Assembly (NCBI GenBank): GCA_964536485.1
Contig: CAZHXX010000001.1
Coordinates: 149,643 to 213,642, forward strand
Source: an uncultured Candidatus Saccharibacteria bacterium
GTDB taxonomy: Bacteria; Patescibacteriota; Saccharimonadia; Saccharimonadales; SZUA-47
Length of the DNA stretch: 64,000 nucleotides
Direction: 5' to 3'
Within the stretch, counting starts at the first letter, position 1; every line of letters begins with the position of its first letter. The position numbers and the translations under genes were made by a program. The notes below the pieces were generated by a model that saw nothing but the letters and a program-made list of their open reading frames with translations, was not told the DNA's origin and searched no databases. Positions 1,689 through 11,120 of the stretch are shown piece after piece.

Positions 1689-4244
1689 ATGAAATTACCA
1701 AAAACTTACACACCAAGTGACTATGAAGCAGATATTTATGCTCTCTGGGAAAAGACAGAGGCCTTTCAACCGAAAGGAAAGGGTGACTTCTTTAGTATTG
1801 TCTTGCCACCGCCTAATGCAAACGCGCCACTACACATTGGCCATTCGCTCGACTTCTCTTTAAAAGATATCGTTGCTCGCTATCAGCGGGCAAAAGGCAA
1901 ACGAGTGCTTATGGTACCGGGCGCTGACCACGCGGGGTTTGAGACACAAGTTGTGTATGAAAAACACTTGGCCAAAGAAGGGAAGAGCCGTTTCGATTTT
2001 TCTCGCGAGGAGCTGTACTCGCGAATATGGGATTTTGTCCAAGAAAATAAAGGTACCTTTGAGTCGCAACTTCGTTCTTTTGGAACGAGCTGTGATTGGA
2101 CTCGGTTTACCTTTACGCTCGACGAGAAAGTGGTACACACCGCCTACGGGACATTTAAGCGACTATGGGACGATGGGCTTATTTATAGAGGTGAACGACT
2201 GGTAAACTACTGTACCTTTCACCGAACTGGCTTTGCGGATATCGAGGTAAAATACGAAGATAGAGTCACGCCCCTATACTACTTGAAGTATGGGCCGTTT
2301 GTACTTGCAACGACGCGTCCTGAAACTAAATTTGGTGATACTGCTGTGGCAGTACATCCAGACGACGAACGATACAAAGACTACGTTGGCAAGGTGCTTA
2401 CAGTAGATGGCGTAAATGGTCCGTTTGAGATACGCGTTATTGCAGATGAGATGGTAGATCGCTCTTTTGGAACGGGCGTCGTTAAGATTACGCCTGCACA
2501 CGATGTAAACGACTGGGAAGTAGCTCAGCGTCATAATTTGGAAGCAATACGAGTCATTAACCATGACGGCACGATGAATCACCGAGCAGGCCAGTTTGAG
2601 GGCATGCCAGTTGCAGAAGCTCGTAAAGCGGTGGTTGAGGCGCTCAAAGAAAAAGACTTGCTTGACCATGTAGACGAGAAATATCAAAACAGGGTAGGGG
2701 TCTGCTACAAATGTGGCACAGTTATCGAACCAATGCTTCTCGATCAATGGTTTGTCGATATGAAAAAACTTGCTCAGCCAGCGATAAAGGCGCTCCGTGA
2801 GAAAAAAATTACTTTCTATCCTGAAGCAAAGCGCGCCCAGACGATTGAATACCTTAAGAATGTTCGCGATTGGAACATTAGTCGTCAGATTGCGTGGGGA
2901 ATCCCTATTCCAGCGTTTCAGAATGTTGATGACCCAGATGACTGGATTTTTGACGAGGCAGTGAGTGAAGAAATTATTGAACGAGACGGAAAACATTACC
3001 GTCGCGATCCGGACGTTTTTGACACCTGGTTTTCTAGCGGTCAGTGGCCGTATGTCACTCTTGGCTACCCAGACAATGATGACTATAAGGATGGGTACCC
3101 AACATCGTTTATGGAAATGGGCGTTGATATCTTGTACCAGTGGGGTGCACGTATGATTTGTCTCGGGTTGTATGTGACCGGAGATGTTCCTTTTAAAGAG
3201 CTCTACCTTCACGGCATGGTGCGTAGTGAAGATGGCCGAAAAATGAGCAAAAGTCTTGGCAATGTTATTGACCCAAATAGTGTGCTTGCAGAGTATGGTT
3301 CTGATGCTTTGCGCATGGGTATTGTCTCTGGGAGAAGCCCGGGAGATTCAGCTGCTTACTCGCAGGCCAAGATACTCGCTGGCCGGAACTTTGCAAACAA
3401 GCTGTGGAACATTGCCCGCTTTTGCGAAGGATTGTTAGATGACAAGAATCCAAACTCTCATCAAGCAAAGGCAGTGACTCCTGCGGATCACTGGATGTTG
3501 AGCAAATTACAACAATCATCAGATGAGATTAGCGCTCATCTTGATGTGTATCGCATTAGCGAAGCGTATGAAGCAATGTACCACTTTGTCTGGGATGACG
3601 TTGCGGACTGGTATGTGGAGGCAAGTAAGCGCGAACTTAACCCTGACCTCTTGCTCTATGTGCTAGAGAGTGTGTTGATACTCGCACACCCATTTGCCCC
3701 GTTTGTGACAGAGACAATCTGGCAGACGTTGGCCATTACCGATGACTCGGTGCTTGCAACGGCGCTGTGGCCAAAAGCGTTGAAGTTTGACAGTAAAAAA
3801 GTTGATGAGTTTGCTGAAATACAGCGGATAGTTATTGAGACAAGAGCAATTGTCTCTGCTATGCAATTGCAGAAGACGTCTTTGTATCATAGCGACGTGG
3901 CCTTTTTGCAGGAGCACGCGACCCTTATTGCGCAACTTGCCCGGATCGACGGCGTACACCAAGTAGAAGACGGGAAGGGGCTTCGACTCACAACTACCAA
4001 GTATAACTGCTGGTTAGACATAGACCGTGAGCGTGCAGAGCGTTATGTTAAAAAGCTAGCAGCTCACCAGGAAGAGGCTAAAAACCGCCTAGAGGGCCTC
4101 AAAAAGCGTCTAGAGAACAAAAATTATGTCGATAACGCCCCAAAGGAACTGGTTGCTGAAACAAAACAACAACTTGCTGATGCTGAAGTGCTTATAGAGA
4201 ATATGAGCCGTGAAATTGCCAGAATAAGCGGCGTGACAGAGTAA
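1689..4244 (+). CDS. valS: valine--tRNA ligase
   Basis: Class I aaRS with a HIGH-type motif (PLHIGHSL), KMSKS, and a C-terminal coiled coil. The ATG at 1689 (MKLPKTYTP...) is preferred over the TTG at 1578. A TATACT box lies at 1673-1678. Confidence 0.95.
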   Translation: MKLPKTYTPSDYEADIYALWEKTEAFQPKGKGDFFSIVLPPPNANAPLHIGHSLDFSLKDIVARYQRAKGKRVLMVPGADHAGFETQVVYEKHLAKEGKSRFDFSREELYSRIWDFVQENKGTFESQLRSFGTSCDWTRFTFTLDEKVVHTAYGTFKRLWDDGLIYRGERLVNYCTFHRTGFADIEVKYEDRVTPLYYLKYGPFVLATTRPETKFGDTAVAVHPDDERYKDYVGKVLTVDGVNGPFEIRVIADEMVDRSFGTGVVKITPAHDVNDWEVAQRHNLEAIRVINHDGTMNHRAGQFEGMPVAEARKAVVEALKEKDLLDHVDEKYQNRVGVCYKCGTVIEPMLLDQWFVDMKKLAQPAIKALREKKITFYPEAKRAQTIEYLKNVRDWNISRQIAWGIPIPAFQNVDDPDDWIFDEAVSEEIIERDGKHYRRDPDVFDTWFSSGQWPYVTLGYPDNDDYKDGYPTSFMEMGVDILYQWGARMICLGLYVTGDVPFKELYLHGMVRSEDGRKMSKSLGNVIDPNSVLAEYGSDALRMGIVSGRSPGDSAAYSQAKILAGRNFANKLWNIARFCEGLLDDKNPNSHQAKAVTPADHWMLSKLQQSSDEISAHLDVYRISEAYEAMYHFVWDDVADWYVEASKRELNPDLLLYVLESVLILAHPFAPFVTETIWQTLAITDDSVLATALWPKALKFDSKKVDEFAEIQRIVIETRAIVSAMQLQKTSLYHSDVAFLQEHATLIAQLARIDGVHQVEDGKGLRLTTTKYNCWLDIDRERAERYVKKLAAHQEEAKNRLEGLKKRLENKNYVDNAPKELVAETKQQLADAEVLIENMSREIARISGVTE

Positions 4245-4281: not shown

Positions 4282-4995
4282 ATGACAGAGTTTCTTCTAG
4301 GTCTTGAGCTTGAGCCTTTTGTAGATGGTAAGCCTCATTTACAGTTGTTGACTACCGACAAAGGTGTTCATGTTGTACGTTTTCCTCGAGATATGGGCGA
4401 ACAACGCTCAATTAGTATGGATACGGCGTTAAATCGAGAAGATTGGATTATGCGTGTACTTGGTGAGCATCAAAAACTTCGAGATCGTGGAGTTAGAGTG
4501 CCTGTTACGAGAGCACAGACTGCGCATACTCGCTTCTACACTGGAGATTCATATCATATGACTGGGAGTGGTGTTGTTATGATTAGTGAATTTGTTTCCG
4601 GTATTCCGTTGCTCGATGTAGATTCTAGGAAACTCGATAATCGTAAAAGACAGTTACTTCACAAATCTGGGACAAGAACTGTCATCGGCCTTTGCATGTA
4701 CGCGAGCGTGGCTACAGACAATGAAGCTGAAATCCTACATGATATATTTCCCCCTAAGCAATTTATGGTGGGTAATCTGATAGATGATGCTCCGCACACG
4801 GATGCTGATCTATTTATGATTGATACAGAAGGTATGCTGGCCTCGACGACAGACCTCAATACGCTTGAAGGAACGGCTAATCTTATAGCAGATCTAGTAG
4901 GTACAATTGAAGAGCTGTCAGGACTTGAAATGCCCACCGCTAGACGAGCACTACATTCGTTTAGATATGGTGATTTTAGTGTCCCTCAAGTATAG
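4282..4995 (+). CDS. hypothetical protein, possible protein-kinase-like fold
   Basis: 237-aa ORF. ILHDIFPPKQF...LFMIDTEG weakly resembles the HxD...N / DxG catalytic segments of the kinase-like fold. TATAAT at 4269-4274, 7 nt before the ATG. Confidence 0.5.
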   Translation: MTEFLLGLELEPFVDGKPHLQLLTTDKGVHVVRFPRDMGEQRSISMDTALNREDWIMRVLGEHQKLRDRGVRVPVTRAQTAHTRFYTGDSYHMTGSGVVMISEFVSGIPLLDVDSRKLDNRKRQLLHKSGTRTVIGLCMYASVATDNEAEILHDIFPPKQFMVGNLIDDAPHTDADLFMIDTEGMLASTTDLNTLEGTANLIADLVGTIEELSGLEMPTARRALHSFRYGDFSVPQV

Positions 4996-5000
4996 TTTGT

Positions 5001-5855
5001 TTAGACAAGTTCGAGAGCTGAGCGGATGCGCTCTACAGACTCAGCAGGACGCATATCGTCGAACCACATGACCCGCCACCCTTGTTGTTCGGCGGCCATA
5101 AGGTTTGTTCTGCTGTCGTCGATAAATAGAATTTCTTCTGGAGGAACGCCTGAGCGGTCAGTCGCTACCGAGTAGATATGAGGCTCTGGCTTAATGGTAC
5201 CTACCTGAGAGGAGTCAATGATACTATCATAGGCAAGATTGGGCAGGAGCCCGCCGTAAAGCAATTTCTGGATAAGCCCAGGCATGATATTAGAGAGTAG
5301 GCCGATTTTATAATGTTGCGAAATCCAGCGAGCAAGTGTGTGCATCTCGGTAATTGGCTCTACTGCATCGAGATAGTATTCTTCCCACTTTATGGAGCGT
5401 ACACCTATCCGTTCAGCAAATTGTTGGTTGAATTCCTCGAGGCTTATTTCGCCACGACACGCAACGTCATTAAGATGCCAAAAGGCTGTTTCTATTGTTT
5501 CACTTGAAACGCCTGTTTCATGGGATATTTTGGTGAAGGCTGCATGAAAGAAATGCACCATACAGCCGTTAATATCGACATACACAAACGAAACGCCTGA
5601 TTTGCTTGTTCGTTTCTGGACCGCCGGTGGGGTGGCAAGCGATAAGTGACCTAGCAGTGTATCAAGCGATACGCCCAGGACCGATGCAATTCGCGCAACG
5701 GTGAATACCGATGGCGTCTTGATCGCTCCTCGCTCGATTTTTGCTAAGGTCGAATAAGACAAATCTGCCCTAACACACAGTTCTTGTTGTGTCAGAGCAG
5801 CAGTTTGCCGTGCTGTTTGTATAGCTTTTCCCAAAGCTAGCTCCACCCGATCCAT
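5001..5855 (-). CDS. XRE-family HTH domain fused to a HAD-like hydrolase domain
   Basis: N-terminus LTQQELCVRADLSYSTLAKIERG (Cro/C1 HTH). C-terminal half has HAD motifs (VYVDINGCM, LLSN, K...FIDD). Start set at M35 (5855; M31 at 5867 is also possible) because the upstream extension overlaps a small ORF. Confidence 0.7.
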   Translation of the reverse strand: MDRVELALGKAIQTARQTAALTQQELCVRADLSYSTLAKIERGAIKTPSVFTVARIASVLGVSLDTLLGHLSLATPPAVQKRTSKSGVSFVYVDINGCMVHFFHAAFTKISHETGVSSETIETAFWHLNDVACRGEISLEEFNQQFAERIGVRSIKWEEYYLDAVEPITEMHTLARWISQHYKIGLLSNIMPGLIQKLLYGGLLPNLAYDSIIDSSQVGTIKPEPHIYSVATDRSGVPPEEILFIDDSRTNLMAAEQQGWRVMWFDDMRPAESVERIRSALELV

Positions 5856-5910
5856 TAGTACTATCATACCAGCTGGAGCGTAAAAATGGAATAAAAATGG
5901 TACGAAAAGG

Positions 5911-6084
5911 CTAGACAGGGATAAACGACAGAATGATGAGCATAAGAATGAAGGCAAGAACGCCCACTACTACGCCACCACCGACTGACTTCTGCGTGTT
6001 GCCGCCTGTACGCTTGTAGAACTTATTTGCAACCCAGGCACCAGAGCCTAGCGCAACTAAAAAAGCAATAAGTGTGTTTCCCAT
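5911..6084 (-). CDS. small two-TM membrane protein (57 aa), below the ORF-track cutoff
   Basis: Hand translation: MGNTLIAFLVALGSGAWVANKFYKRTGGNTQKSVGGGVVVGVLAFILMLIILSFIPV*. An AGGAA lies just upstream of the ATG. Confidence 0.45.
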   Translation of the reverse strand: MGNTLIAFLVALGSGAWVANKFYKRTGGNTQKSVGGGVVVGVLAFILMLIILSFIPV

Positions 6085-6105
6085 ATGTTCCTAGTATACG
6101 AGAAA

Positions 6106-7467
6106 TTAGCGAAACGAGAAAGCCTCAAAGTGCATTTGAGAAAGTGGGACGCCTGCTTTTTGAAGTTGCGTGGTAAGGGCTTTCACCATAGGAGGAGGGC
6201 CACATATGAGGTAATCGAACTGGCGCAAATCGGCTAAAGAGTTTTTTAGCATGTCTACCGTCACAAAGCCACTGAAGTTTTTTGCAACGACACTTGTTGC
6301 GAAGTTCTCTGGCAGGTGGCGGGTAATATCTATAAATTCGTTCAGAAAGACTGCTTCATCGAGCGATTCGGTCCCGTAGTAAAAGCGTATATCGTACTCC
6401 TCTGTGCCAGAAAATGAGCGAGCCATACTGAGGAATGGCGTGATCCCAATGCCACCTGCTATCCATACTTGTGAGCGATTCTTCACATTTTTGTAGCTGA
6501 ACCTTCCATAAGGGCCCTCAAGCTGTACGGCAGTGCCTGGCTGTAGGTCCATAAAACGTTTTGTGTCGTCACCAAGTGCTTTAATCGTAAAACGGATATA
6601 TGGGCCGTTATGGGCATTTGAAAAAGAGAATGGGTGTGGTTCTGGGTCCACGCCGATTGCGTCAAAAGAGGCATAGGCATATTGGCCTGCTTCATAATGC
6701 ATTTTTTGACCACTTGTACGCAGGACTAGTTCTGCAACTGTGGGGTTGAGTCTATTTATCTCTGCAATCTCGTATTGATATCGTCGTATAACTTTTTTCC
6801 AAACAACGGAGCGGTATAAGAAGGCGATAAACCCAGCAGTCCCTAGGATTCCAAAAAAGACAAAAAGCAGAGGGATCTTCGTAATTTGCCCACGAGCAAG
6901 AAGACCGTGTAAAAAGAAGAGAGGGATAAGCCATCCAAAAAATCGATGTACCCATATCCATTTTTGGTGAGTCACGTGGGCGTAGATACTCATTCCCGTC
7001 ACGAAGATGAGCCCAAAAAAAGCGCCTATTCCTAAAAATATGACAAGGCTCGACCAGTCCCAGATATGGCTCAATGGGGTGTCTTTTAAGTATCGCCCTA
7101 GCCCAAGAAATACCGGGTGAAGTATGATTAGCCAAAAAGCGATTTTACCTGATGCAATATGCACTTTTGTGAGTTTGTCGAGCCCTCCGTAGAGCTTTTC
7201 CAGAACACGTAGTCGAGCACTTAAAATTGGATTAAGGCAGTAAAGCGTTGTCCCGCAGAGAGCCACAGCTTTACCTAGGGAAGCAATGCTCGTGCCTAAA
7301 TTTGCTGTGGCGTTACTAAGGCCGAAGCTTTCAAGCCAAATGAAAATAGGGATACATCCAAACAGAACGAGTAATACATTACTCATGTATTTATCTATAA
7401 AAGTCACGATTCTATTGTCCCGAATGTGCTTGTGTTTTGCAAACTCAAGTCTAGAGAAGGAAAACAT
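6106..7467 (-). CDS. ferric-reductase-domain flavocytochrome (NOX/FRE-like: 6-TM heme domain + FAD + NAD(P)H domains)
   Basis: His pairs with NOX-like spacing in TM helices (HIASGKIAFWLIILH; HRFFGWLIPLFFLH). HPFSFS FAD motif. GGIGITP NAD(P)H motif. The start could instead be M28 (7386). Confidence 0.8.
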   Translation of the reverse strand: MFSFSRLEFAKHKHIRDNRIVTFIDKYMSNVLLVLFGCIPIFIWLESFGLSNATANLGTSIASLGKAVALCGTTLYCLNPILSARLRVLEKLYGGLDKLTKVHIASGKIAFWLIILHPVFLGLGRYLKDTPLSHIWDWSSLVIFLGIGAFFGLIFVTGMSIYAHVTHQKWIWVHRFFGWLIPLFFLHGLLARGQITKIPLLFVFFGILGTAGFIAFLYRSVVWKKVIRRYQYEIAEINRLNPTVAELVLRTSGQKMHYEAGQYAYASFDAIGVDPEPHPFSFSNAHNGPYIRFTIKALGDDTKRFMDLQPGTAVQLEGPYGRFSYKNVKNRSQVWIAGGIGITPFLSMARSFSGTEEYDIRFYYGTESLDEAVFLNEFIDITRHLPENFATSVVAKNFSGFVTVDMLKNSLADLRQFDYLICGPPPMVKALTTQLQKAGVPLSQMHFEAFSFR

Positions 7468-7503
7468 AAACCAATAGAACTATTGACTCCCGTAAAGCTA
7501 AAG

Positions 7504-8058
7504 CTAAGGTTGGGTAGCCCCTCTTACAGCTAGGCCGCCTGATGCGGGCGCCACGGCCCGAAGTTTTTCCGACGCATTTACTAACATCTCAGAAAGCTCA
7601 TGGAACGGGCTAACGGCACCTATCTCTTCGTGCGAAGTGCTACCAGGGCTCGTCTGGTCATATTTCACTAAGACGCTCTTCACCGGGTCTTCTATTCCTA
7701 TATCTACTACTCCCCATGTTTCTCCAATAGTAACCTCTTCTGGCTGGCCGTTAAGAAGTGCTCCCGATTTTGGTTGCGGGGAGGCAAACTTACCGGTAGC
7801 TTTATCGATTTCTGGTAGTTCAATGATTACACCCTTACCAATACCAAATCTTCTACCCGCATCAGTTGTTACTATTACGGCGTCGTCTGATGAAGGTGAC
7901 CTTAGTTGTCTCGTGCGCGTATGTTCGCCCCATCGTGTAGATTGTCCTGGTTCACTCATAAGTAATGCAAGTGATCCATCTCTGAATTGTGCCATAGTGT
8001 AGCTGTTGGGGCGGGGTGCCATTTCACCTTGGCCAGGCATTTTTGTTTTATCTGTCAT
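7504..8058 (-). CDS. hypothetical protein (184 aa)
   Basis: ORF only; no recognisable motif. Confidence 0.5.
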   Translation of the reverse strand: MTDKTKMPGQGEMAPRPNSYTMAQFRDGSLALLMSEPGQSTRWGEHTRTRQLRSPSSDDAVIVTTDAGRRFGIGKGVIIELPEIDKATGKFASPQPKSGALLNGQPEEVTIGETWGVVDIGIEDPVKSVLVKYDQTSPGSTSHEEIGAVSPFHELSEMLVNASEKLRAVAPASGGLAVRGATQP

Positions 8059-8158
8059 GTTCTTATGATAGCACTAAAACAATAATTTGTCAATAAGTAA
8101 GCACTTTACAGTGGTTGATTTCGACCCGAAGTGACGTTATGAACAATAAAATACCAAT

Positions 8159-8182
8159 AAAAAAGACCCAGATAACTGAGTC
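8159..8182 (-). terminator. rho-independent terminator following element A
   Basis: Minus strand reads GACTCAG-TTAT-CTGGGTC followed by TTTTTT. Confidence 0.6.
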
Positions 8183-8190
8183 ATTTTTAT

Positions 8191-8343
8191 TGGTACACCC
8201 GATACGATTTACCCGCATTCTGCGGGCCTGAAACTTCATCTTTGAAAACAAGTTTTCAAGAAAAGGTTTCCTTGCAAAATGCCACCGGCATTTTTCACCT
8301 CCGACCTCTTTTCGGTCGTACGTGTTGGATCGAGGACACCAAA
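8191..8343 (-). repeat. structured element copy A (three-hairpin core; ends in a 20-nt copy of the tRNA-Arg 3' end)
   Basis: Core 8306-8211 aligns with 8538-8638 (copy B). 8191-8210 is identical to 8377-8396. See findings. Confidence 0.6.
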
Positions 8344-8345
8344 TT

Positions 8346-8367
8346 AAAAACCCCGCATAAAGCAGGG
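8346..8367 (-). terminator. rho-independent terminator after tRNA-Arg
   Basis: Minus strand reads CCCTGC-TTTAT-GCGGGG followed by TTTTT. Confidence 0.55.
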
Positions 8368-8376
8368 TTCTTAATT

Positions 8377-8453
8377 TGGTACACCCGATACGATTTGAAC
8401 GTACGACCTCCTGTACCGCAAACAGACGCTCTATCCAGCTGAGCTACGGGTGC
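8377..8453 (-). tRNA. tRNA-Arg, anticodon GCG by my fold, CCA encoded
   Basis: Hand-folded cloverleaf: GCACCCG-TA-GCTC-AGCTGGATA-GAGC-G-TCTGT-TTGCGGT-ACAGG-AGGTC-GTACG-TTCAAAT-CGTAT-CGGGTGT-ACCA. Confidence 0.85.
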
Positions 8454-8499
8454 TTTTCGCTGTGAATTTCACACAGAACAGAGGTAATTCTAGCATATC

Positions 8500-8510
8500 T
8501 GGTATATAAT
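8500..8510 (+). promoter_or_regulatory. candidate -10 region (TGGTATATAAT) driving element B / tRNA-Ser
   Basis: TATAAT at 8505-8510, 10 nt upstream of the GGAGAGATGG at 8521. Confidence 0.45.
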
Positions 8511-8520
8511 TACCAGTGCT

Positions 8521-8652
8521 GGAGAGATGGCCGAGTTGGTCGAAGGTGAGAAATGCCCATGAGCGCATTTCGCAAGACAGGCAACACTTGAAAACTTGTT
8601 TTCAAAGCTGTTGTACTGTGGGGTCGCCGAAGGTGACCACGACGTAGTCGTG
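8521..8652 (+). repeat. structured element copy B (starts with a copy of the tRNA-Ser 5' end, then the three-hairpin core)
   Basis: 8521-8548 matches 8702-8729 at 26 of 28 positions. Core 8538-8638 is homologous to copy A. An extra hairpin CACGAC-GTA-GTCGTG lies at 8638-8652. Confidence 0.6.
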
Positions 8653-8701
8653 CGCCATCAAGGCTGTGCCAGCAAAATAATGAGTTAAAATAACTTTAAG
8701 T

Positions 8702-8794
8702 GGAGAGATGGCCGAGTTGGTTGAAGGCGCACGACTCGAAATCGTGTAAGTATGGCAACATGCTTCGAGGGTTCGAATCCCTCTCTCTCCGCCA
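8702..8794 (+). tRNA. tRNA-Ser (anticodon CGA), class II long variable arm, CCA encoded
   Basis: GGAGAGA-TG-GCC...GGC-G-CACGA-CTCGAAA-TCGTG-(variable arm)-GAGGG-TTCGAAT-CCCTC-TCTCTCC-GCCA. Confidence 0.92.
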
Positions 8795-8805
8795 AAATAA
8801 GGATG

Positions 8806-8829
8806 CCGTCATTTATGACGGTATTTTTA
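8806..8829 (+). terminator. rho-independent terminator after tRNA-Ser(CGA)
   Basis: CCGTCA-TTTA-TGACGG followed by TATTTTTAT. Confidence 0.6.
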
Positions 8830-8835
8830 TTCTGA

Positions 8836-8956
8836 GTGCTAGGATGATTCGAACGACGATGTCCGGTGGACATCGGCCGCCCTTTAGCCCCGAGTGGGGT
8901 TGTCTCTAGCGAAAGTAATTTTCTCTTTCGCGGGGACAAGGTCGAATCCCTCTCTC
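8836..8956 (+). other. hairpin-rich spacer bounded by tRNA-Ser T-arm-derived fragments (element C)
   Basis: GATTCGAAC at 8846-8854 is an inverted T-arm-like piece. Hairpins: CGATGTCC-GGT-GGACATCG and GCGAAAG...CTTTCGC. GGTCGAATCCCTCTCTC at 8940-8956 copies the tRNA-Ser 3' region with one T missing. Confidence 0.4.
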
Positions 8957-8980
8957 AAGATGACAAGCTAATGAATTCTT

Positions 8981-9955
8981 CTAATCTTCTCGTGTTGCCG
9001 ATGTATCTGGGTGCTTTAATCCTTCAACGTAATTACTCACATTTATAGCTGCTGGCTCGCCATGGAGCAAGTAGTATTCTTGATTATCGTGATGAGTTGC
9101 TCCAGATATGAGCAACCATGTTCTGTCTTCATCATACTCAATAGAGAAGAACATGCGGTATCCGCCGGGGCCGTTATCGCGTGACTTGTATATTATTTTG
9201 CCATCTTGAGTTTTGCAATCTACAGCAGCTGAGTTAAAGTTTTTTAAAGAGGCTTTTATGCCATCATTTTTTATCATTTCAAAAAGATTTGATAGCTCTG
9301 CTTTTATTACTCTTGATCCACGGTCATTTTCTGAAGTGATATCCGTTATGTCTCCAGTGGTATCAATTATCGCAATATCTCTTTCATGTTTTCCTCTCTC
9401 ACTTGGCCCATCGTTAACAACAAATACCCTTGTCCCATTTGCCATTTCTTCCACATGAGCATTTTGCTCAGCTACTTTGTCGAGCATTTTGAAAGTTACT
9501 GATTCGTCTGAAACTTTATGGTCAGTATCTTTGATGTTTTTTGCTGAAGTCTCAAGCCAGACTCTTGAAATTGGGTCACCTTCTTCTGAAGCAGTGATGA
9601 TACCTTCAAGCTGGATAAGGTTAGTTGTTCTTTCTGCTCCTCGTTCTATTGCAACAGGAATTGGGCACACACCGGCAAGCTTACATGCCTTGCAACCCAA
9701 AAAATCGATAATTGGTTCTGTATCACCTTGTTCTTTGTATCTGCTGTATTCACCCGATATTTGAGCTAGTATTTCTAATGCTCCTGATTGGTCAGGGAGA
9801 AAGTCTATCGTTTGTTCAGTCGTTGTTAATTGGTCCGCAAGGGCGATATCTGGCAGAACGCGTGTTCTAACGTAGGGATTGTCTACCGGACAGTCAAGAG
9901 GTACATCTGTTTCGATCATTGTTTGTGTTTTACTTTTATGATATAATTCTAGCAT
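8981..9955 (-). CDS. hypothetical protein (324 aa); C-terminus weakly RelE/ParE-like
   Basis: AT-rich ORF. GCKACKLAGVC Cys cluster. C-terminal GYRMFFSIEYDEDRTWLLISGATHHDN resembles the RelE/ParE toxin core pattern (weak, by eye). Confidence 0.6.
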   Translation of the reverse strand: MLELYHKSKTQTMIETDVPLDCPVDNPYVRTRVLPDIALADQLTTTEQTIDFLPDQSGALEILAQISGEYSRYKEQGDTEPIIDFLGCKACKLAGVCPIPVAIERGAERTTNLIQLEGIITASEEGDPISRVWLETSAKNIKDTDHKVSDESVTFKMLDKVAEQNAHVEEMANGTRVFVVNDGPSERGKHERDIAIIDTTGDITDITSENDRGSRVIKAELSNLFEMIKNDGIKASLKNFNSAAVDCKTQDGKIIYKSRDNGPGGYRMFFSIEYDEDRTWLLISGATHHDNQEYYLLHGEPAAINVSNYVEGLKHPDTSATRED

Positions 9956-10802: not shown

Positions 10803-10895
10803 GGAGAGATACCCAAGTGGCTGAAGGGGACGGTTTGCTAAATCGTTAGTGGGGCGAAAGTTCCAGCGAGGGTTCGAATCCCTCTCTCTCCGCCA
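10803..10895 (+). tRNA. tRNA-Ser (anticodon GCT), class II, CCA encoded
   Basis: GGAGAGA-TA-CCC...GGG-G-ACGGT-TTGCTAA-ATCGT-(variable arm)-GAGGG-TTCGAAT-CCCTC-TCTCTCC-GCCA. Confidence 0.92.
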
Positions 10896-10900
10896 TAAAG

Positions 10901-10933
10901 AAAAAGCCGAGACATGTACGTCTCGGCTTTTTC
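10901..10933 (+). terminator. bidirectional rho-independent terminator
   Basis: AAAAAGCCGAGAC-ATGTAC-GTCTCGGCTTTTT. Confidence 0.7.
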
Positions 10934-10935
10934 TC

Positions 10936-11107
10936 TTGATGAATAGTGTAGTATTCGAACCCGACCTTTTTACTTTAGCAAAAAAGGGTTCGCTAAATAG
11001 TCTCATCACCCTTAGGGCTGATAGATTATTTAAGTATTCTCATCCCTCTCTCAATCTTAACGACAGCACTTTTTGTGCTCGTCTATCAAGGCGAATCCCT
11101 CTCGCCA
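10936..11107 (+). other. spacer bounded by tRNA-Ser T-arm-derived fragments (element D)
   Basis: ATTCGAACCC at 10953-10962 is an inverted copy of GGGTTCGAAT. ATCCCTCTCTC lies at 11042-11052. GGCGAATCCCTCTCGCCA lies at 11090-11107. Confidence 0.4.
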
Positions 11108-11120
11108 TAAATAAAAGGTC

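Follow-up and report, generated by a model that had tools for sequence, protein, structure and literature searches.

The window, a 64,000-nt stretch of DNA from an uncultured Candidatus Saccharibacteria bacterium, carries a divergent pair of intact tRNA genes, tRNA-Arg(GCG) and tRNA-Ser(CGA), and each of them adjoins a module of ~95 nt embedded in a partial copy of that same tRNA (Table 1). R1, a covariance model derived from 85 related members, finds only two full matches in the window: copy A, which scores 103.4 bits (E = 3.7e-23) against 19.2 bits on the opposite strand, and copy B, which scores 79.5 bits (E = 2.1e-17) against 16.3 bits on the opposite strand.

Table 1. Features of the tRNA-Arg/tRNA-Ser locus, in positions of the window.
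Feature	Position	Strand	Basis
Terminator T2 after module A	8152–8189	−	Terminator scan; inverted repeat; L028 orthologue 3803–3841
Sense copy of the tRNA-Arg 3' end	8190–8210	−	Direct repeat, 21/21 identical to 8376–8396
Module copy A, in the T loop of the tRNA-Arg 3' remnant	8209–8302	−	Covariance model R1
hp0 hairpin	8296–8324	−	Fold; overlaps the first bases of module A
Degenerate antisense copy of the tRNA-Arg 3' part, TTGGTGTCCTCGATCCAA	8325–8342	−	Minimum-free-energy fold; 5' strand of the outer closing helix, with 8190–8203
Terminator-like hairpin T1 and T-run, AATTAAGAACCCTGCTTTATGCGGGGTTTTTAAT, directly 3' of the tRNA-Arg CCA	8343–8376	−	Sequence; missed by a simple terminator scan
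Intact tRNA-Arg(GCG), partner gene of module A	8377–8453	−	ARAGORN; Rfam tRNA model, 59.3 bits
Ancestral promoter region of tRNA-Ser(CGA) with a −10 box (TATAAT, 8505–8510), now before the 5' fragment of B	8480–8519	+	L028 alignment
tRNA-Ser(CGA) 5' remnant, positions −1 to 26 (acceptor 5' strand and D arm)	8520–8546	+	Repeat, 26/27 to 8701–8727
Module copy B, at tRNA position 26/27, directly 3' of AAGG	8542–8640	+	Covariance model R1
tRNA-Ser copy resumed past module B	8638–8659	+	Sequence, fold, inverted repeat
Spacer with −10-like TAAAAT at 8686–8691, 10 nt before intact tRNA-Ser	8660–8701	+	Sequence
Intact tRNA-Ser(CGA), partner gene of module B	8702–8794	+	ARAGORN; Rfam tRNA model
Third tRNA-linked element, different core	8838–8957	+	Repeat, fold, alignment, nhmmer match in L062

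The preliminary description had reported two inverted, paralogous three-hairpin elements, and all of the features that it listed, including the three hairpins, are present in the sequence where it placed them. The ~100-nt alignment of A and B was reproduced and was also recovered as an inverted repeat. The shared segment GGTCGRAGGTGARAAATGCC lies at 8287–8306 (−) and 8538–8557 (+), with two matches in 64 kb at up to three mismatches (chance expectation 0.01), and the 21-mer CTTGAAAACTTGTTTTCAAAG has exactly two matches, 8240–8260 (−) and 8587–8607 (+), against 0.01 expected. The duplicated tRNA-Arg 3' end is one base longer than the 20 nt first noted; the duplication of the tRNA-Ser 5' end, the TATAAT box 10 nt ahead of the tRNA-like 5' end of copy B, and the hairpin and T-run after copy A (stem 8182–8165, minus strand, found by the terminator scan) were all recovered.

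The hairpin hp0 that leads into copy A is made up of an antisense piece of the T stem and variable loop, a loop, and a sense copy of tRNA positions ~45–54 that ends in GGU and runs into the module. Copy A then reads GUGAA, hp1 (AAAAUGCC/GGCAUUUU), GCAAG, hp2 with the 21-mer as its apex, and hp3 (CCCGCA/UGCGGG), and the sense fragment beyond it comprises the 3' half of the T loop, the 3' strands of the T stem and acceptor, ACCA and one further nucleotide. The minimum-free-energy fold of the region (−54.3 kcal/mol, z = −4.1) includes the pairing that had been proposed between the degenerate inverted copy TTGGTGTCCTCGAT (8342–8329) and 8203–8190. Past copy B, the tRNA-Ser copy resumes with a remodelled anticodon stem (8638–8652, CACGAC-GTA-GTCGTG), in which the stem is retained and the loop is shortened to GUA; the CGCCATC that follows pairs with GATGGC(C) of the tRNA-Ser 5' fragment. 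The same remodelling is found where Gly and Phe tRNAs have a copy at position 26. The third element of Table 1 has, in order, an antisense T loop, one hairpin that resembles hp1, two further hairpins, and GGTCGAATCCCTCTCTC, which copies the T loop, the T stem and the start of the acceptor of tRNA-Ser; it scores only 9.9 bits with R1. A further tRNA-linked element, at 10935–11116, likewise shares the layout of A and B and has a different core.

A search for homologues, their number and their adjacency to tRNA genes gave at least 134 copies (sense-strand matches to R1) in 104 loci, from a family sample seeded with one hp2 variant. Nearly all hosts are Candidatus Saccharibacteria MAGs, and outside Saccharibacteria the module is confined to a few other CPR lineages. 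Two sampled MAGs hold at least 6–7 copies per genome. Complete genomes among the family loci measure 0.84–1.23 Mb, Saccharibacteria genomes in general being ~1 Mb in size. Two independent metagenome contigs terminate within the hp2 palindrome. The Rfam scan that had been suggested showed no match of the module to any Rfam 15 family: across the whole window only three tRNAs reach the gathering score, and a cmscan of 7900–9300 at E values up to 10 returned nothing relevant and no intron family. Viral contigs gave a single match (21.7 bits), which has no tRNA nearby and was therefore not counted as a family member. A literature search found no paper on this motif, and an exact-sequence text search returned none.

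From 5' to 3', the module is composed of GUGAR, hp1, a GNRA-like linker, a long, bulged hp2 with a CUUG-type loop, and hp3. Paired cells make up 97.1% of the positions that R1 pairs, and 26 of the 29 pairs show compensatory changes; the covariation score, computed on an alignment fitted to the model structure, is 0.651, compared with 0.200 after shuffling (0/500) and 0.04–0.11 with slid partners. On the tRNA-sense strand, G·U outnumbers A·C by 103 to 12. That the three hairpins covary and accept G·U but not A·C means that selection works on the tRNA-sense strand. The corresponding counts across the family are 49 and 14 for hp0 and 15 and 17 for the outer closing helix, the near equality in the latter resembling a decaying inverted repeat at the DNA level. 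Although A and B share the 21-mer exactly, it is just the most frequent form that the hp2 apex takes in the family; elsewhere in the family this stem covaries, which rules out a protein-binding DNA palindrome. Hammerhead, twister, hairpin and HDV cores, K-turns, retron msr/msd, integron attC and TIGR arrays were compared by eye, and their defining motifs do not fit. The preliminary description had suggested a family of structured RNAs with tRNA-derived termini, transcribed divergently around tRNA-Arg. The family, the structure and the strand are borne out by more than 130 members, strong covariation and strand-specific scores, but the divergent arrangement is incidental, as A goes with its own tRNA-Arg and B with its own tRNA-Ser.

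Linkage to tRNA genes is a constant of the family. Within 250 nt of 100 copies lie 70 tRNAs, all but 2 of them co-oriented, and 84 of the 140 tRNAs in family loci bear a module upstream, downstream or on both sides (48 of the 140 downstream). The tRNAs concerned serve at least 16 amino acids, and the arrangement at one and the same isoacceptor can differ among three genomes, with the module upstream, downstream or missing. The ends of the module are constant, and the partial copy of the neighbouring, co-oriented tRNA is interrupted just after G-G(-U). The commonest site is the T loop, from nucleotide 54 to 55/56, which is used by copy A and all downstream-type copies; the others are the variable loop, the anticodon loop (37/38) and position 26/27, as in copy B. 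The duplicated tRNA segment extends from ~10–16 nt beyond the insertion point to the end of the tRNA, is ~12–65 nt long and stops at the tRNA termini; in most copies its 5' limit lies between −5 and +1 and its 3' limit between 0 and +2.

Of 34 downstream-type copies, 23 have antisense T-arm pieces that reach significance in ungapped tests against shuffles; these tests replaced global alignments of the antisense and sense fragments because a shuffled control reached 0.8 identity. These inverted pieces are copies of the local tRNA and not of the element. The last 16 nt of the distal sense fragment are perfect in 19 of the 34 copies, whereas the antisense piece is never perfect; in an alignment of the latter that is itself unreliable, no mismatch hot spots at 54–58, as for a cDNA of a modified tRNA, were seen. 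In one 5' remnant (L030), the D stem carries compensatory changes relative to the neighbouring tRNA. In-silico excision in 96 registers restores a junction-spanning tRNA for only 3 of the 134 copies, and an intact paralogue lies beside at least two of them (L093 and L107). No known insertion mechanism explains the origin of the antisense tRNA pieces or the sharp limits of the duplications.

The two layouts differ in their signals. A terminator precedes the module in 29 of 32 downstream-type copies and follows it in 17 of 32; among upstream-type copies, a terminator stands before the tRNA in 1 of 32 and a −10-like box in 22 of 32. Copy B retains the ancestral tRNA-Ser promoter and copy A the ancestral terminator, a complete gene copy adjoins each, and what is fused to the module is in both cases the ancestral end of the tRNA gene.

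The module is recognisable as a discrete insertion unit by orthologous sites with and without it, by nested insertions and by tandem arrays. There are two filled/empty comparisons, either of which could in principle be a deletion. The divergent tRNA pair is also present, inverted relative to the flanking genes, in a syntenic relative (L028), which has an orthologue of A but no B: the orthologous promoter stands directly before intact tRNA-Ser, and T2 of the window is the orthologue of the terminator directly 3' of tRNA-Arg there. At the other site, the module of L047 holds a second module inside hp3, whereas hp3 is intact in L048, the flanking element being ~96–97% identical. Some tandem copies are 100% identical. 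Otherwise the copies are old. Median core identity is 0.73 within genomes versus 0.72 between genomes, and near-identity (0.98–1.0) is restricted to local repeats, in tandem or at the same locus, and one pair, possibly one array on two contigs; outside local tandems, dispersed copies are never nearly identical, and no recent transposition burst is visible. Paralogues as divergent within a genome as across species, with their structures intact, point to long-term selection. No integrase, transposase or reverse transcriptase and no recurrent protein family was found beside the copies, the ten commonest neighbour clusters being housekeeping genes or lacking a Pfam match. The window neighbours give no integrase signal even at E values up to 1; among the 5.8 billion proteins of a database they are singletons, and a homologue search with the flanking 184-aa protein returned only itself, a look-up of clusters adding no name.

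The module family looks like a small insertion element with a fold kept by selection. A and B are two old paralogues of a ~95-nt non-coding module, and the account as a whole, insertion element and selected fold together, has in our judgement an even chance of being right. The module would be a present or past non-autonomous insertion element that lands in tRNA genes and survives only where part of the tRNA gene is duplicated. It is probably transcribed inside the tRNA transcription unit, copy B as a structured 5' leader that would start from the old promoter and run into tRNA-Ser, and copy A as a putative read-through trailer between two terminators. The tRNA-derived ends may provide for tRNA-type end processing or protection, and the conserved fold may offer a recognition surface to a trans-acting factor involved in propagation, host function or both.

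A further proposal, which we consider unlikely, is a bacterial RNA-mediated mobile element whose RNA is joined to tRNA transcripts or template-switched into tRNA genes, or alternatively a guide-like RNA. The RNA-mediated reading derives from the fact that the duplicated tRNA segment stops at the transcript's own ends: the 5' boundary is at ~−2 to −5, near the expected transcription start, the 3' boundary is the CCA end, and in one locus (L015) it is the terminator U-tract. If true, it would add a SINE-like or intron-like class of retroelements in bacteria without group II introns. The guide-like alternative could be a constant scaffold with a tRNA-antisense flank that acts on the cognate tRNA.

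Explanations without mobility, or with a different kind of it, have to be set against the insertion element with a selected fold. It is possible, though we doubt it, that the module is a non-mobile host small-RNA family of the TLR type (see below), copied by local tRNA duplication or rearrangement, with a core kept for a cell function (tRNA precursor processing, a protein sponge or a regulator, for example) and a tRNA-derived end that is a processing signal only. Purifying selection on old paralogues, the often perfect distal sense fragment next to an antisense piece that never is, the D-stem compensation in L030, the two-terminator layout as in E. coli rrA, rrB and rrF (PMC8144298) and the lack of a mobility enzyme beside the copies would all follow. 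However, one core with the same ends occurs at four tRNA positions and for at least 16 amino acids, for which local duplication is insufficient without movement of the core; a module nested in a module and an isoacceptor with the module upstream, downstream or absent in three genomes also speak against it. A remnant of a single-strand DNA transposon (IS200/IS605 PATE or REP) would move through hairpins in single-stranded DNA with a HUH/Y1 transposase in trans, inserting 3' of a short GGT target that is not duplicated, the RNA playing no role. The module has a G-G(-T) left flank and hairpins; such an origin would account for the clean, oriented, site-specific insertion after GG(T) and the lack of a short fixed target duplication and of an adjacent gene, and single-stranded DNA could also explain the strand-specific conservation of the hairpins. 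The left-end and right-end hairpins of IS200/IS605 elements are alike, but hp1 and hp3 are dissimilar, old divergent copies that are still intact would not be expected of dead transposons, and long target duplications that stop at the ends of a tRNA do not belong to this mechanism, so that we regard this origin as distinctly unlikely.

The remaining candidates come from tRNA biology and from the other readings of the preliminary description. One of these, remnants of a miniature integrative element that targeted two tRNA genes, stands as far as the discrete insertion unit is concerned (filled and empty sites, nesting, at least 16 amino acids). Its integrative part, attL/attR scars of integrase elements that had tRNA-Arg and tRNA-Ser as attachment sites and whose interior was subsequently lost, is very improbable. 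The T loop and the anticodon loop, reportedly noted by Williams in 2002, are classical integrase sublocations in tRNA genes and would suit such scars. Direct repeats of the tRNA 3' end flank element A, and partial tRNA genes are a common product of integration (PMC9897764). Copy B, however, has a 5' and not a 3' repeat; 5' fragments with ancestral promoters and the internal sites at position 26 and in the variable loop misfit attL/attR, and the module sits inside the loop and not next to a reconstituted att core. No integrase or element genes were found beside the copies examined, the copies are old and intact, one conserved core serves the tRNAs of at least 16 amino acids, and covariation with a G·U bias speaks of a folded single strand and not of protein-binding arms. 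A new class of small introns, removed from the RNA of functional tRNA genes, would explain clean insertion into tRNA loops and has an analogy in transposing archaeal tRNA introns. The host group also suits it, Patescibacteria being rich in tRNA group I introns (PMC13011429). It is nonetheless extremely improbable and largely refuted by the rarity with which excision restores a tRNA: the host tRNA copies are truncated, Rfam gives no group I intron match, and ~95 nt is far under group I or group II size. The third earlier reading, in which tRNA-Arg lies in a ~450-bp cassette or invertible segment and A and B are its long terminal inverted repeats, could appeal to the mutual inversion of A and B around tRNA-Arg and to the inverted tRNA pair of L028. 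It has next to no chance of being correct, refuted as it is by comparative data: the 104 other loci show single modules on either side of the tRNA, direct tandems or direct-orientation flanking modules, L028 lacks B, and the flanks of each copy derive from its own tRNA.

Small Saccharibacteria genomes still contain several copies of a 95-nt structured module, which is conserved across the phylum while neighbouring proteins of the window lack detectable relatives. With 26 of 29 pairs covarying, it is among the best-supported unannotated RNA structures. If mobile, it would represent a new route for colonising tRNA genes without destroying them. Its repeats also break short-read assemblies and yield spurious ORFs and tRNA pseudogene calls in CPR annotation.

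Several known systems share features with the module. The bulge-helix-bulge tRNA introns of Thermoproteales (Archaea) are short related sequences at several positions, canonical and non-canonical, of many tRNAs, which implies movement; the genes that they interrupt are functional, and splicing is by the EndA endonuclease. The module likewise occurs as related short sequences at several positions of different tRNA genes, but its host copies are truncated and non-functional and its hosts are bacterial. Bacterial miniature repeats (MITEs, Correia, RPE, ERIC, PATE/REP) are small, non-coding, multicopy, hairpin-forming and co-transcribed with their neighbours, and RPEs also insert into RNA genes. 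The module is also small, non-coding, multicopy and hairpin-forming; it differs in having no element-borne terminal inverted repeats, no fixed short target duplication and no near-identical dispersed copies, and in its exclusive targeting of tRNA genes and its RNA-type covariation. The group I introns in Patescibacteria tRNAs are likewise RNA elements in tRNA loops, in hosts of the same phylum, but the module is ~95 nt long, matches no group I model and is located in remnants. Partial tRNAs at att sites (PMC9897764) repeat a tRNA 3' fragment downstream of an intact gene; unlike them, the module has neither integrase nor cargo, a conserved structured core within the loop, and 5' fragments.

By analogy, the closest known system is that of the tRNA-linked repeats (TLRs) of E. 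coli, including the small RNAs rrA, rrB and rrF. [quoted passage not shown] The Saccharibacteria module, too, has several loci per genome and sometimes tandem units, and copy A lies directly 3' of tRNA-Arg on the same strand, between two terminators, with a 21-nt 3' end identical to that of the gene; copy B instead lies upstream of its own tRNA. The module differs from TLRs in being one covarying three-hairpin core within the T loop of a tRNA remnant, and in its upstream layout with 5' remnants, internal sites, antisense pieces and nesting, none of which is described in PMC8144298. There is no sequence similarity between the two by megablast, which detects only high identity (8100–9000 against 5,426 complete E. 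coli genomes, 0 matches). For the exact 3'-end copies downstream of tRNA and rRNA genes, which E. coli TLRs have presented since 1978, the family provides a sequence-rich model.

The module that flanks tRNA-Arg as copies A and B is a real, phylum-wide structured module of unusual architecture. A search with CTTGAAAACNNGTTTTCAAAG against one genome per GTDB species matched at least 119 stretches. Those listed lie mostly in Candidatus Saccharibacteria, Saccharimonadales or Saccharimonas MAGs, with a few labelled as other Patescibacteria; about 14 of the matches listed are in unrelated organisms and come without the remainder of the element; these are chance matches. Around the 21-mer, the near-palindrome at the apex of hairpin hp2, family members share the whole core: GG-U-GAGAA, hp1, GCAAG, hp2 and hp3. 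The RNAalifold structure from an alignment of 85 cores has compensatory change at 17 of 29 pairs. The covariance model built from these cores, R1, detects exactly two full copies in the window and, in the loci fetched from the matches listed, well over 100 further copies, about 30 of which do not contain the exact 21-mer. No counterpart of the module was found in Rfam 15 or the searchable literature; at the A/B locus Rfam 15 recognised the tRNAs only, and no other family even at E values up to 10.

Features of the tRNA-Arg/tRNA-Ser region of the window
Feature	Position	Strand	Remarks
tRNA-Arg(GCG)	8377-8453	minus	one of three tRNA genes in the window
tRNA-Ser(CGA)	8702-8794	plus	one of three tRNA genes in the window
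tRNA-Ser(GCT)	10803-10895	plus	one of three tRNA genes in the window
Copy A	8209-8302	minus	R1 103.4 bits; opposite strand 19 bits
Copy B	8542-8640	plus	R1 79.5 bits; opposite strand 16 bits
Inverted pair, copies A/B	8237-8282 / 8565-8610	opposite strands	repeat finder
tRNA-Arg 3' end, direct repeat	8190-8210 = 8376-8396		21/21; repeat finder
tRNA-Ser 5' end, direct repeat	8520-8546 / 8701-8727		26/27; repeat finder
Terminator T2	8152-8189	minus	after module A
184-aa protein	7504-8058	minus	beside the tRNA cluster
324-aa protein	8981-9955	minus	beside the tRNA cluster
453-aa protein	6106-7467	minus	beside the tRNA cluster

The shared stretches and tRNA-fragment repeats of the preliminary description were recovered. 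Two stretches common to A and B have exactly two matches each in the 64 kb, one per copy, at up to three mismatches (chance expectation 0.01 for each), and both direct repeats were found again. The regions of both copies fold into closed multi-hairpin shapes more stable than shuffled sequence (A, -54.3 kcal/mol, z = -4.1; B, -57.0 kcal/mol, z = -2.6). When 57 diverse copies were aligned to the model, 97.1% of cells proved to be paired, and both sides change at 26 of 29 pairs. The covariation score is 0.651, compared with 0.200 in shuffles (0 of 500 reach 0.651) and 0.04–0.11 with slid partners; this alignment was fitted to the model, and the independent MAFFT/RNAalifold result agrees in direction. 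All eight pairs of the hp2 apex covary, and thus the near-palindrome is no DNA operator: it forms a hairpin that has a CUUG-type loop and a bulged A that is conserved. Core G.U pairs outnumber A.C mismatches 103 to 12, so selection for the fold acts on the tRNA sense strand. The first reading offered earlier, a family of structured RNAs, is supported for family, structure and strand.

The module is closely linked to tRNA genes. Within 250 nt on each side of 100 copies, ARAGORN found 70 tRNAs, all but two co-oriented with the module. In the listed family loci, 92 of 134 modules have a co-oriented tRNA no more than 170 nt away, the others being mostly in tandem arrays or at contig ends, and 84 of 140 tRNAs bear modules (36 upstream only, 40 downstream only and 8 on both sides). 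The linked tRNAs represent at least 16 amino acids, and the same isoacceptor in different genomes may have a module upstream, downstream or not at all. In the downstream type, as in copy A, the first part 3' of a tRNA ending in CCA is, in 29 of 32 copies, a terminator-like hairpin. Next come an antisense version of the T arm, which is degenerate (significant in 23 of 34 copies, perfect in none), a loop, and a sense copy of approximately tRNA positions 45–54 that leads into the module. Beyond the module, tRNA sense sequence resumes at position 55/56 and runs to the 3' end, with its last 16 nt perfect in 19 of 34 copies; in 17 of 32 a second terminator follows. The upstream type, as in copy B, opens with a copy of the downstream tRNA that begins at -5 to +1 and is interrupted by the module, most commonly in the T loop and otherwise in the variable loop (GGU^C), in the anticodon loop (37/38) or at about position 26. 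Past the module, another 8–16 nt of the tRNA copy end in a short hairpin formed by an inverted repeat; then come a -10-like box and the intact tRNA. Copy B is interrupted at about position 26; 3' of the module it retains the tRNA-Ser anticodon stem, with the loop shortened to GUA (8638-8652).

Upstream-type spacers (for example, L041, L097, L003 and L089) contain an antisense T-arm piece, GGATTCGAACC, and then TATAAT; this piece regularly precedes the -10 box of the intact tRNA at a short, non-canonical distance, and may be a promoter element or a by-product of rearrangement. Past the terminator of tRNA-Ser(CGA) comes a third tRNA-linked element (8838-8957, plus). It is laid out as A, with an antisense T loop, an hp1-like hairpin (GATGTCC-GGT-GGACATC) and two more hairpins, and then repeats tRNA-Ser sequence (8942-8956 = 8773-8787) from the T loop through the T stem to the start of the acceptor, but its core differs from the module (R1, just 9.9 bits). 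A relative with covarying hp1 follows tRNA-Ser(GGA) in L062 (657-775). Downstream of tRNA-Ser(GCT) (10899-11116, plus), a terminator (10899-10934) is followed by the antisense T-arm piece GTATTCGAACCCGACC; after about 95 unrelated nucleotides, the gene's own 3' end recurs in degenerate form, GGCGAATCCCTCTCGCCATAAATAAAA (11090-11116). Thus, all three tRNAs in the window carry downstream partial copies.

The module behaves as a discrete unit. Its ends are constant (5' GUGAR; 3' end of hp3) at each of four tRNA positions, and G-G(-U) always precedes it. In L047, hp3 of one module is interrupted at GGGU^C by another, from a sister subfamily, whereas in the related L048 hp3 is uninterrupted and the surrounding element is ~96–97% identical; such nesting also occurs in L063, L071, L086, L089 and L118. 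The nested subfamily (for example, L086 3415-3510) has GAGAUGAGCC... and an hp2 of the CUUGACUGAUUUGAAGC type, and L029, L066, L028, L011 and L078 have solitary copies of a related variant that shares this hp2 apex. Tandem arrays that are 100% identical occur in L021, L048, L058 and L102.

L028, a Saccharibacteria MAG syntenic with the window (HTH-HAD gene, 66% identity; tRNA-Arg, 96%), has the same divergent tRNA-Ser(CGA)/tRNA-Arg(GCG) pair but lacks module B, which speaks against the third earlier reading, an inverted-repeat cassette carrying tRNA-Arg, rejected here. In L028, the promoter region immediately upstream of tRNA-Ser aligns to window 8480-8519, now 5' of B's tRNA fragment, which is therefore the ancestral gene start. 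Likewise, the terminator directly 3' of its tRNA-Arg is T2, which in the window follows module A's distal fragment, so this fragment is the ancestral gene end. After tRNA-Arg, L028 has two tandem downstream units, the first with a variant core, compared with one in the window, a difference that unequal exchange through the 21-nt repeats would produce. The tRNA pair is inverted relative to the flanking HTH-HAD gene (L028 3454-4200 versus window 8150-8800), and the window has two extra genes between them. The GCG anticodon of tRNA-Arg is genomically encoded in both; ACG is the more usual anticodon of bacterial tRNA-Arg.

Excluding tandem copies, median core identity is 0.73 between paralogues within a genome and 0.72 between species, and the copies are therefore old. 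Those with the same tRNA and configuration are slightly more alike (0.77 versus 0.73, p about 1e-4). The proteins beside the tRNA cluster are each alone in their own 90%-identity cluster; the 184-aa protein has no relative detected among 5.8 billion sequences, and neither it nor the 324-aa protein has a Pfam match at E values up to 1. Neutral DNA of this age would have become unrecognisable, yet nearly all copies of the module retain a complete, paired structure, and we conclude that it is under long-term selection. Selection appears to differ between its parts: the bias towards G.U over A.C is strong in the core stems, moderate in hp0 (49:14 across the family), the hairpin that in copy A lies 5' of the module, and absent in the outer antisense:sense helix (15:17), which looks like a decaying DNA-level inverted repeat.

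No neighbour gene recurred when 606 ORFs from within 2.5 kb of modules were clustered: the two top clusters were spurious ORFs through the module itself, and the next ten, searched against Pfam, comprised eight housekeeping genes and two without a match. The window's own neighbour genes have no integrase or transposase signal, and the same 21-mer scan of a viral contig collection found the family absent. The spurious ORFs (66–90 aa; window 8242-8442, plus, and equivalent places in 18 and 11 loci) form apparent protein "families" and probably give rise to false hypothetical proteins in annotated Saccharibacteria genomes. Two Logan contigs, independent short-read assemblies of the same organism, match window 4739-8259 (L001) and 6186-8259 (L002); both stop at 8259, a position within the hp2 palindrome; de Bruijn graph assemblies break at the inverted module pair.

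The mechanism we favour, at about even odds, is that the module is a non-autonomous tRNA-gene insertion element, expressed within the tRNA transcription unit, with the sense-strand fold as its functional surface. Unit character, sites, polarity, ancestral ends and selection are the demonstrated steps. The module would persist where partial duplication leaves an intact tRNA gene, and would be expressed as part of that gene's transcription unit. Transcription from the ancestral tRNA-Ser promoter would yield B as a structured leader; 31 of 32 upstream-type copies have no terminator ahead of the tRNA. A, with a terminator on either side, would arise by read-through as a trailer with a tRNA-identical 3' tail. 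Processing may use the tRNA-like ends, a trans-acting partner presumably takes part, and propagation could be by DNA or RNA. Duplication of the tRNA segment goes no further than the ends of the tRNA itself (~-2 to -5 at 5', 0 to +2 at 3'), even in copies identical over 50–60 nt. These boundaries hint at a step templated by RNA, but gene conversion could also produce them, as could selection limited to the tRNA-like part. For the module as a whole, an IS200/IS605-like mechanism on single-strand DNA is possible.

The preliminary description had also read the copies as remnants of a miniature integrative element. This reading is partly supported: insertion of a discrete unit is backed by the four sites, the nesting and the lack of B in L028, but integrase scars (PMC9897764) were rejected on their defining tests, as were MITEs and introns, including group I. 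Group I introns are common in Patescibacteria tRNAs (PMC13011429); in silico excision of the module restored the tRNA in just 3 of 134 cases, and thus the modules are not introns of functional tRNA genes.

[quoted passage not shown] Copy A has the position and the 3' identity of these repeats, but a megablast of window 8100-9000 against complete E. coli genomes, which detects high identity only, gave no match, and the covarying T-loop core, upstream configuration, internal sites and nesting of the module go beyond those described. We regard the module as a variant among tRNA-linked repeats and small structured repeat elements.
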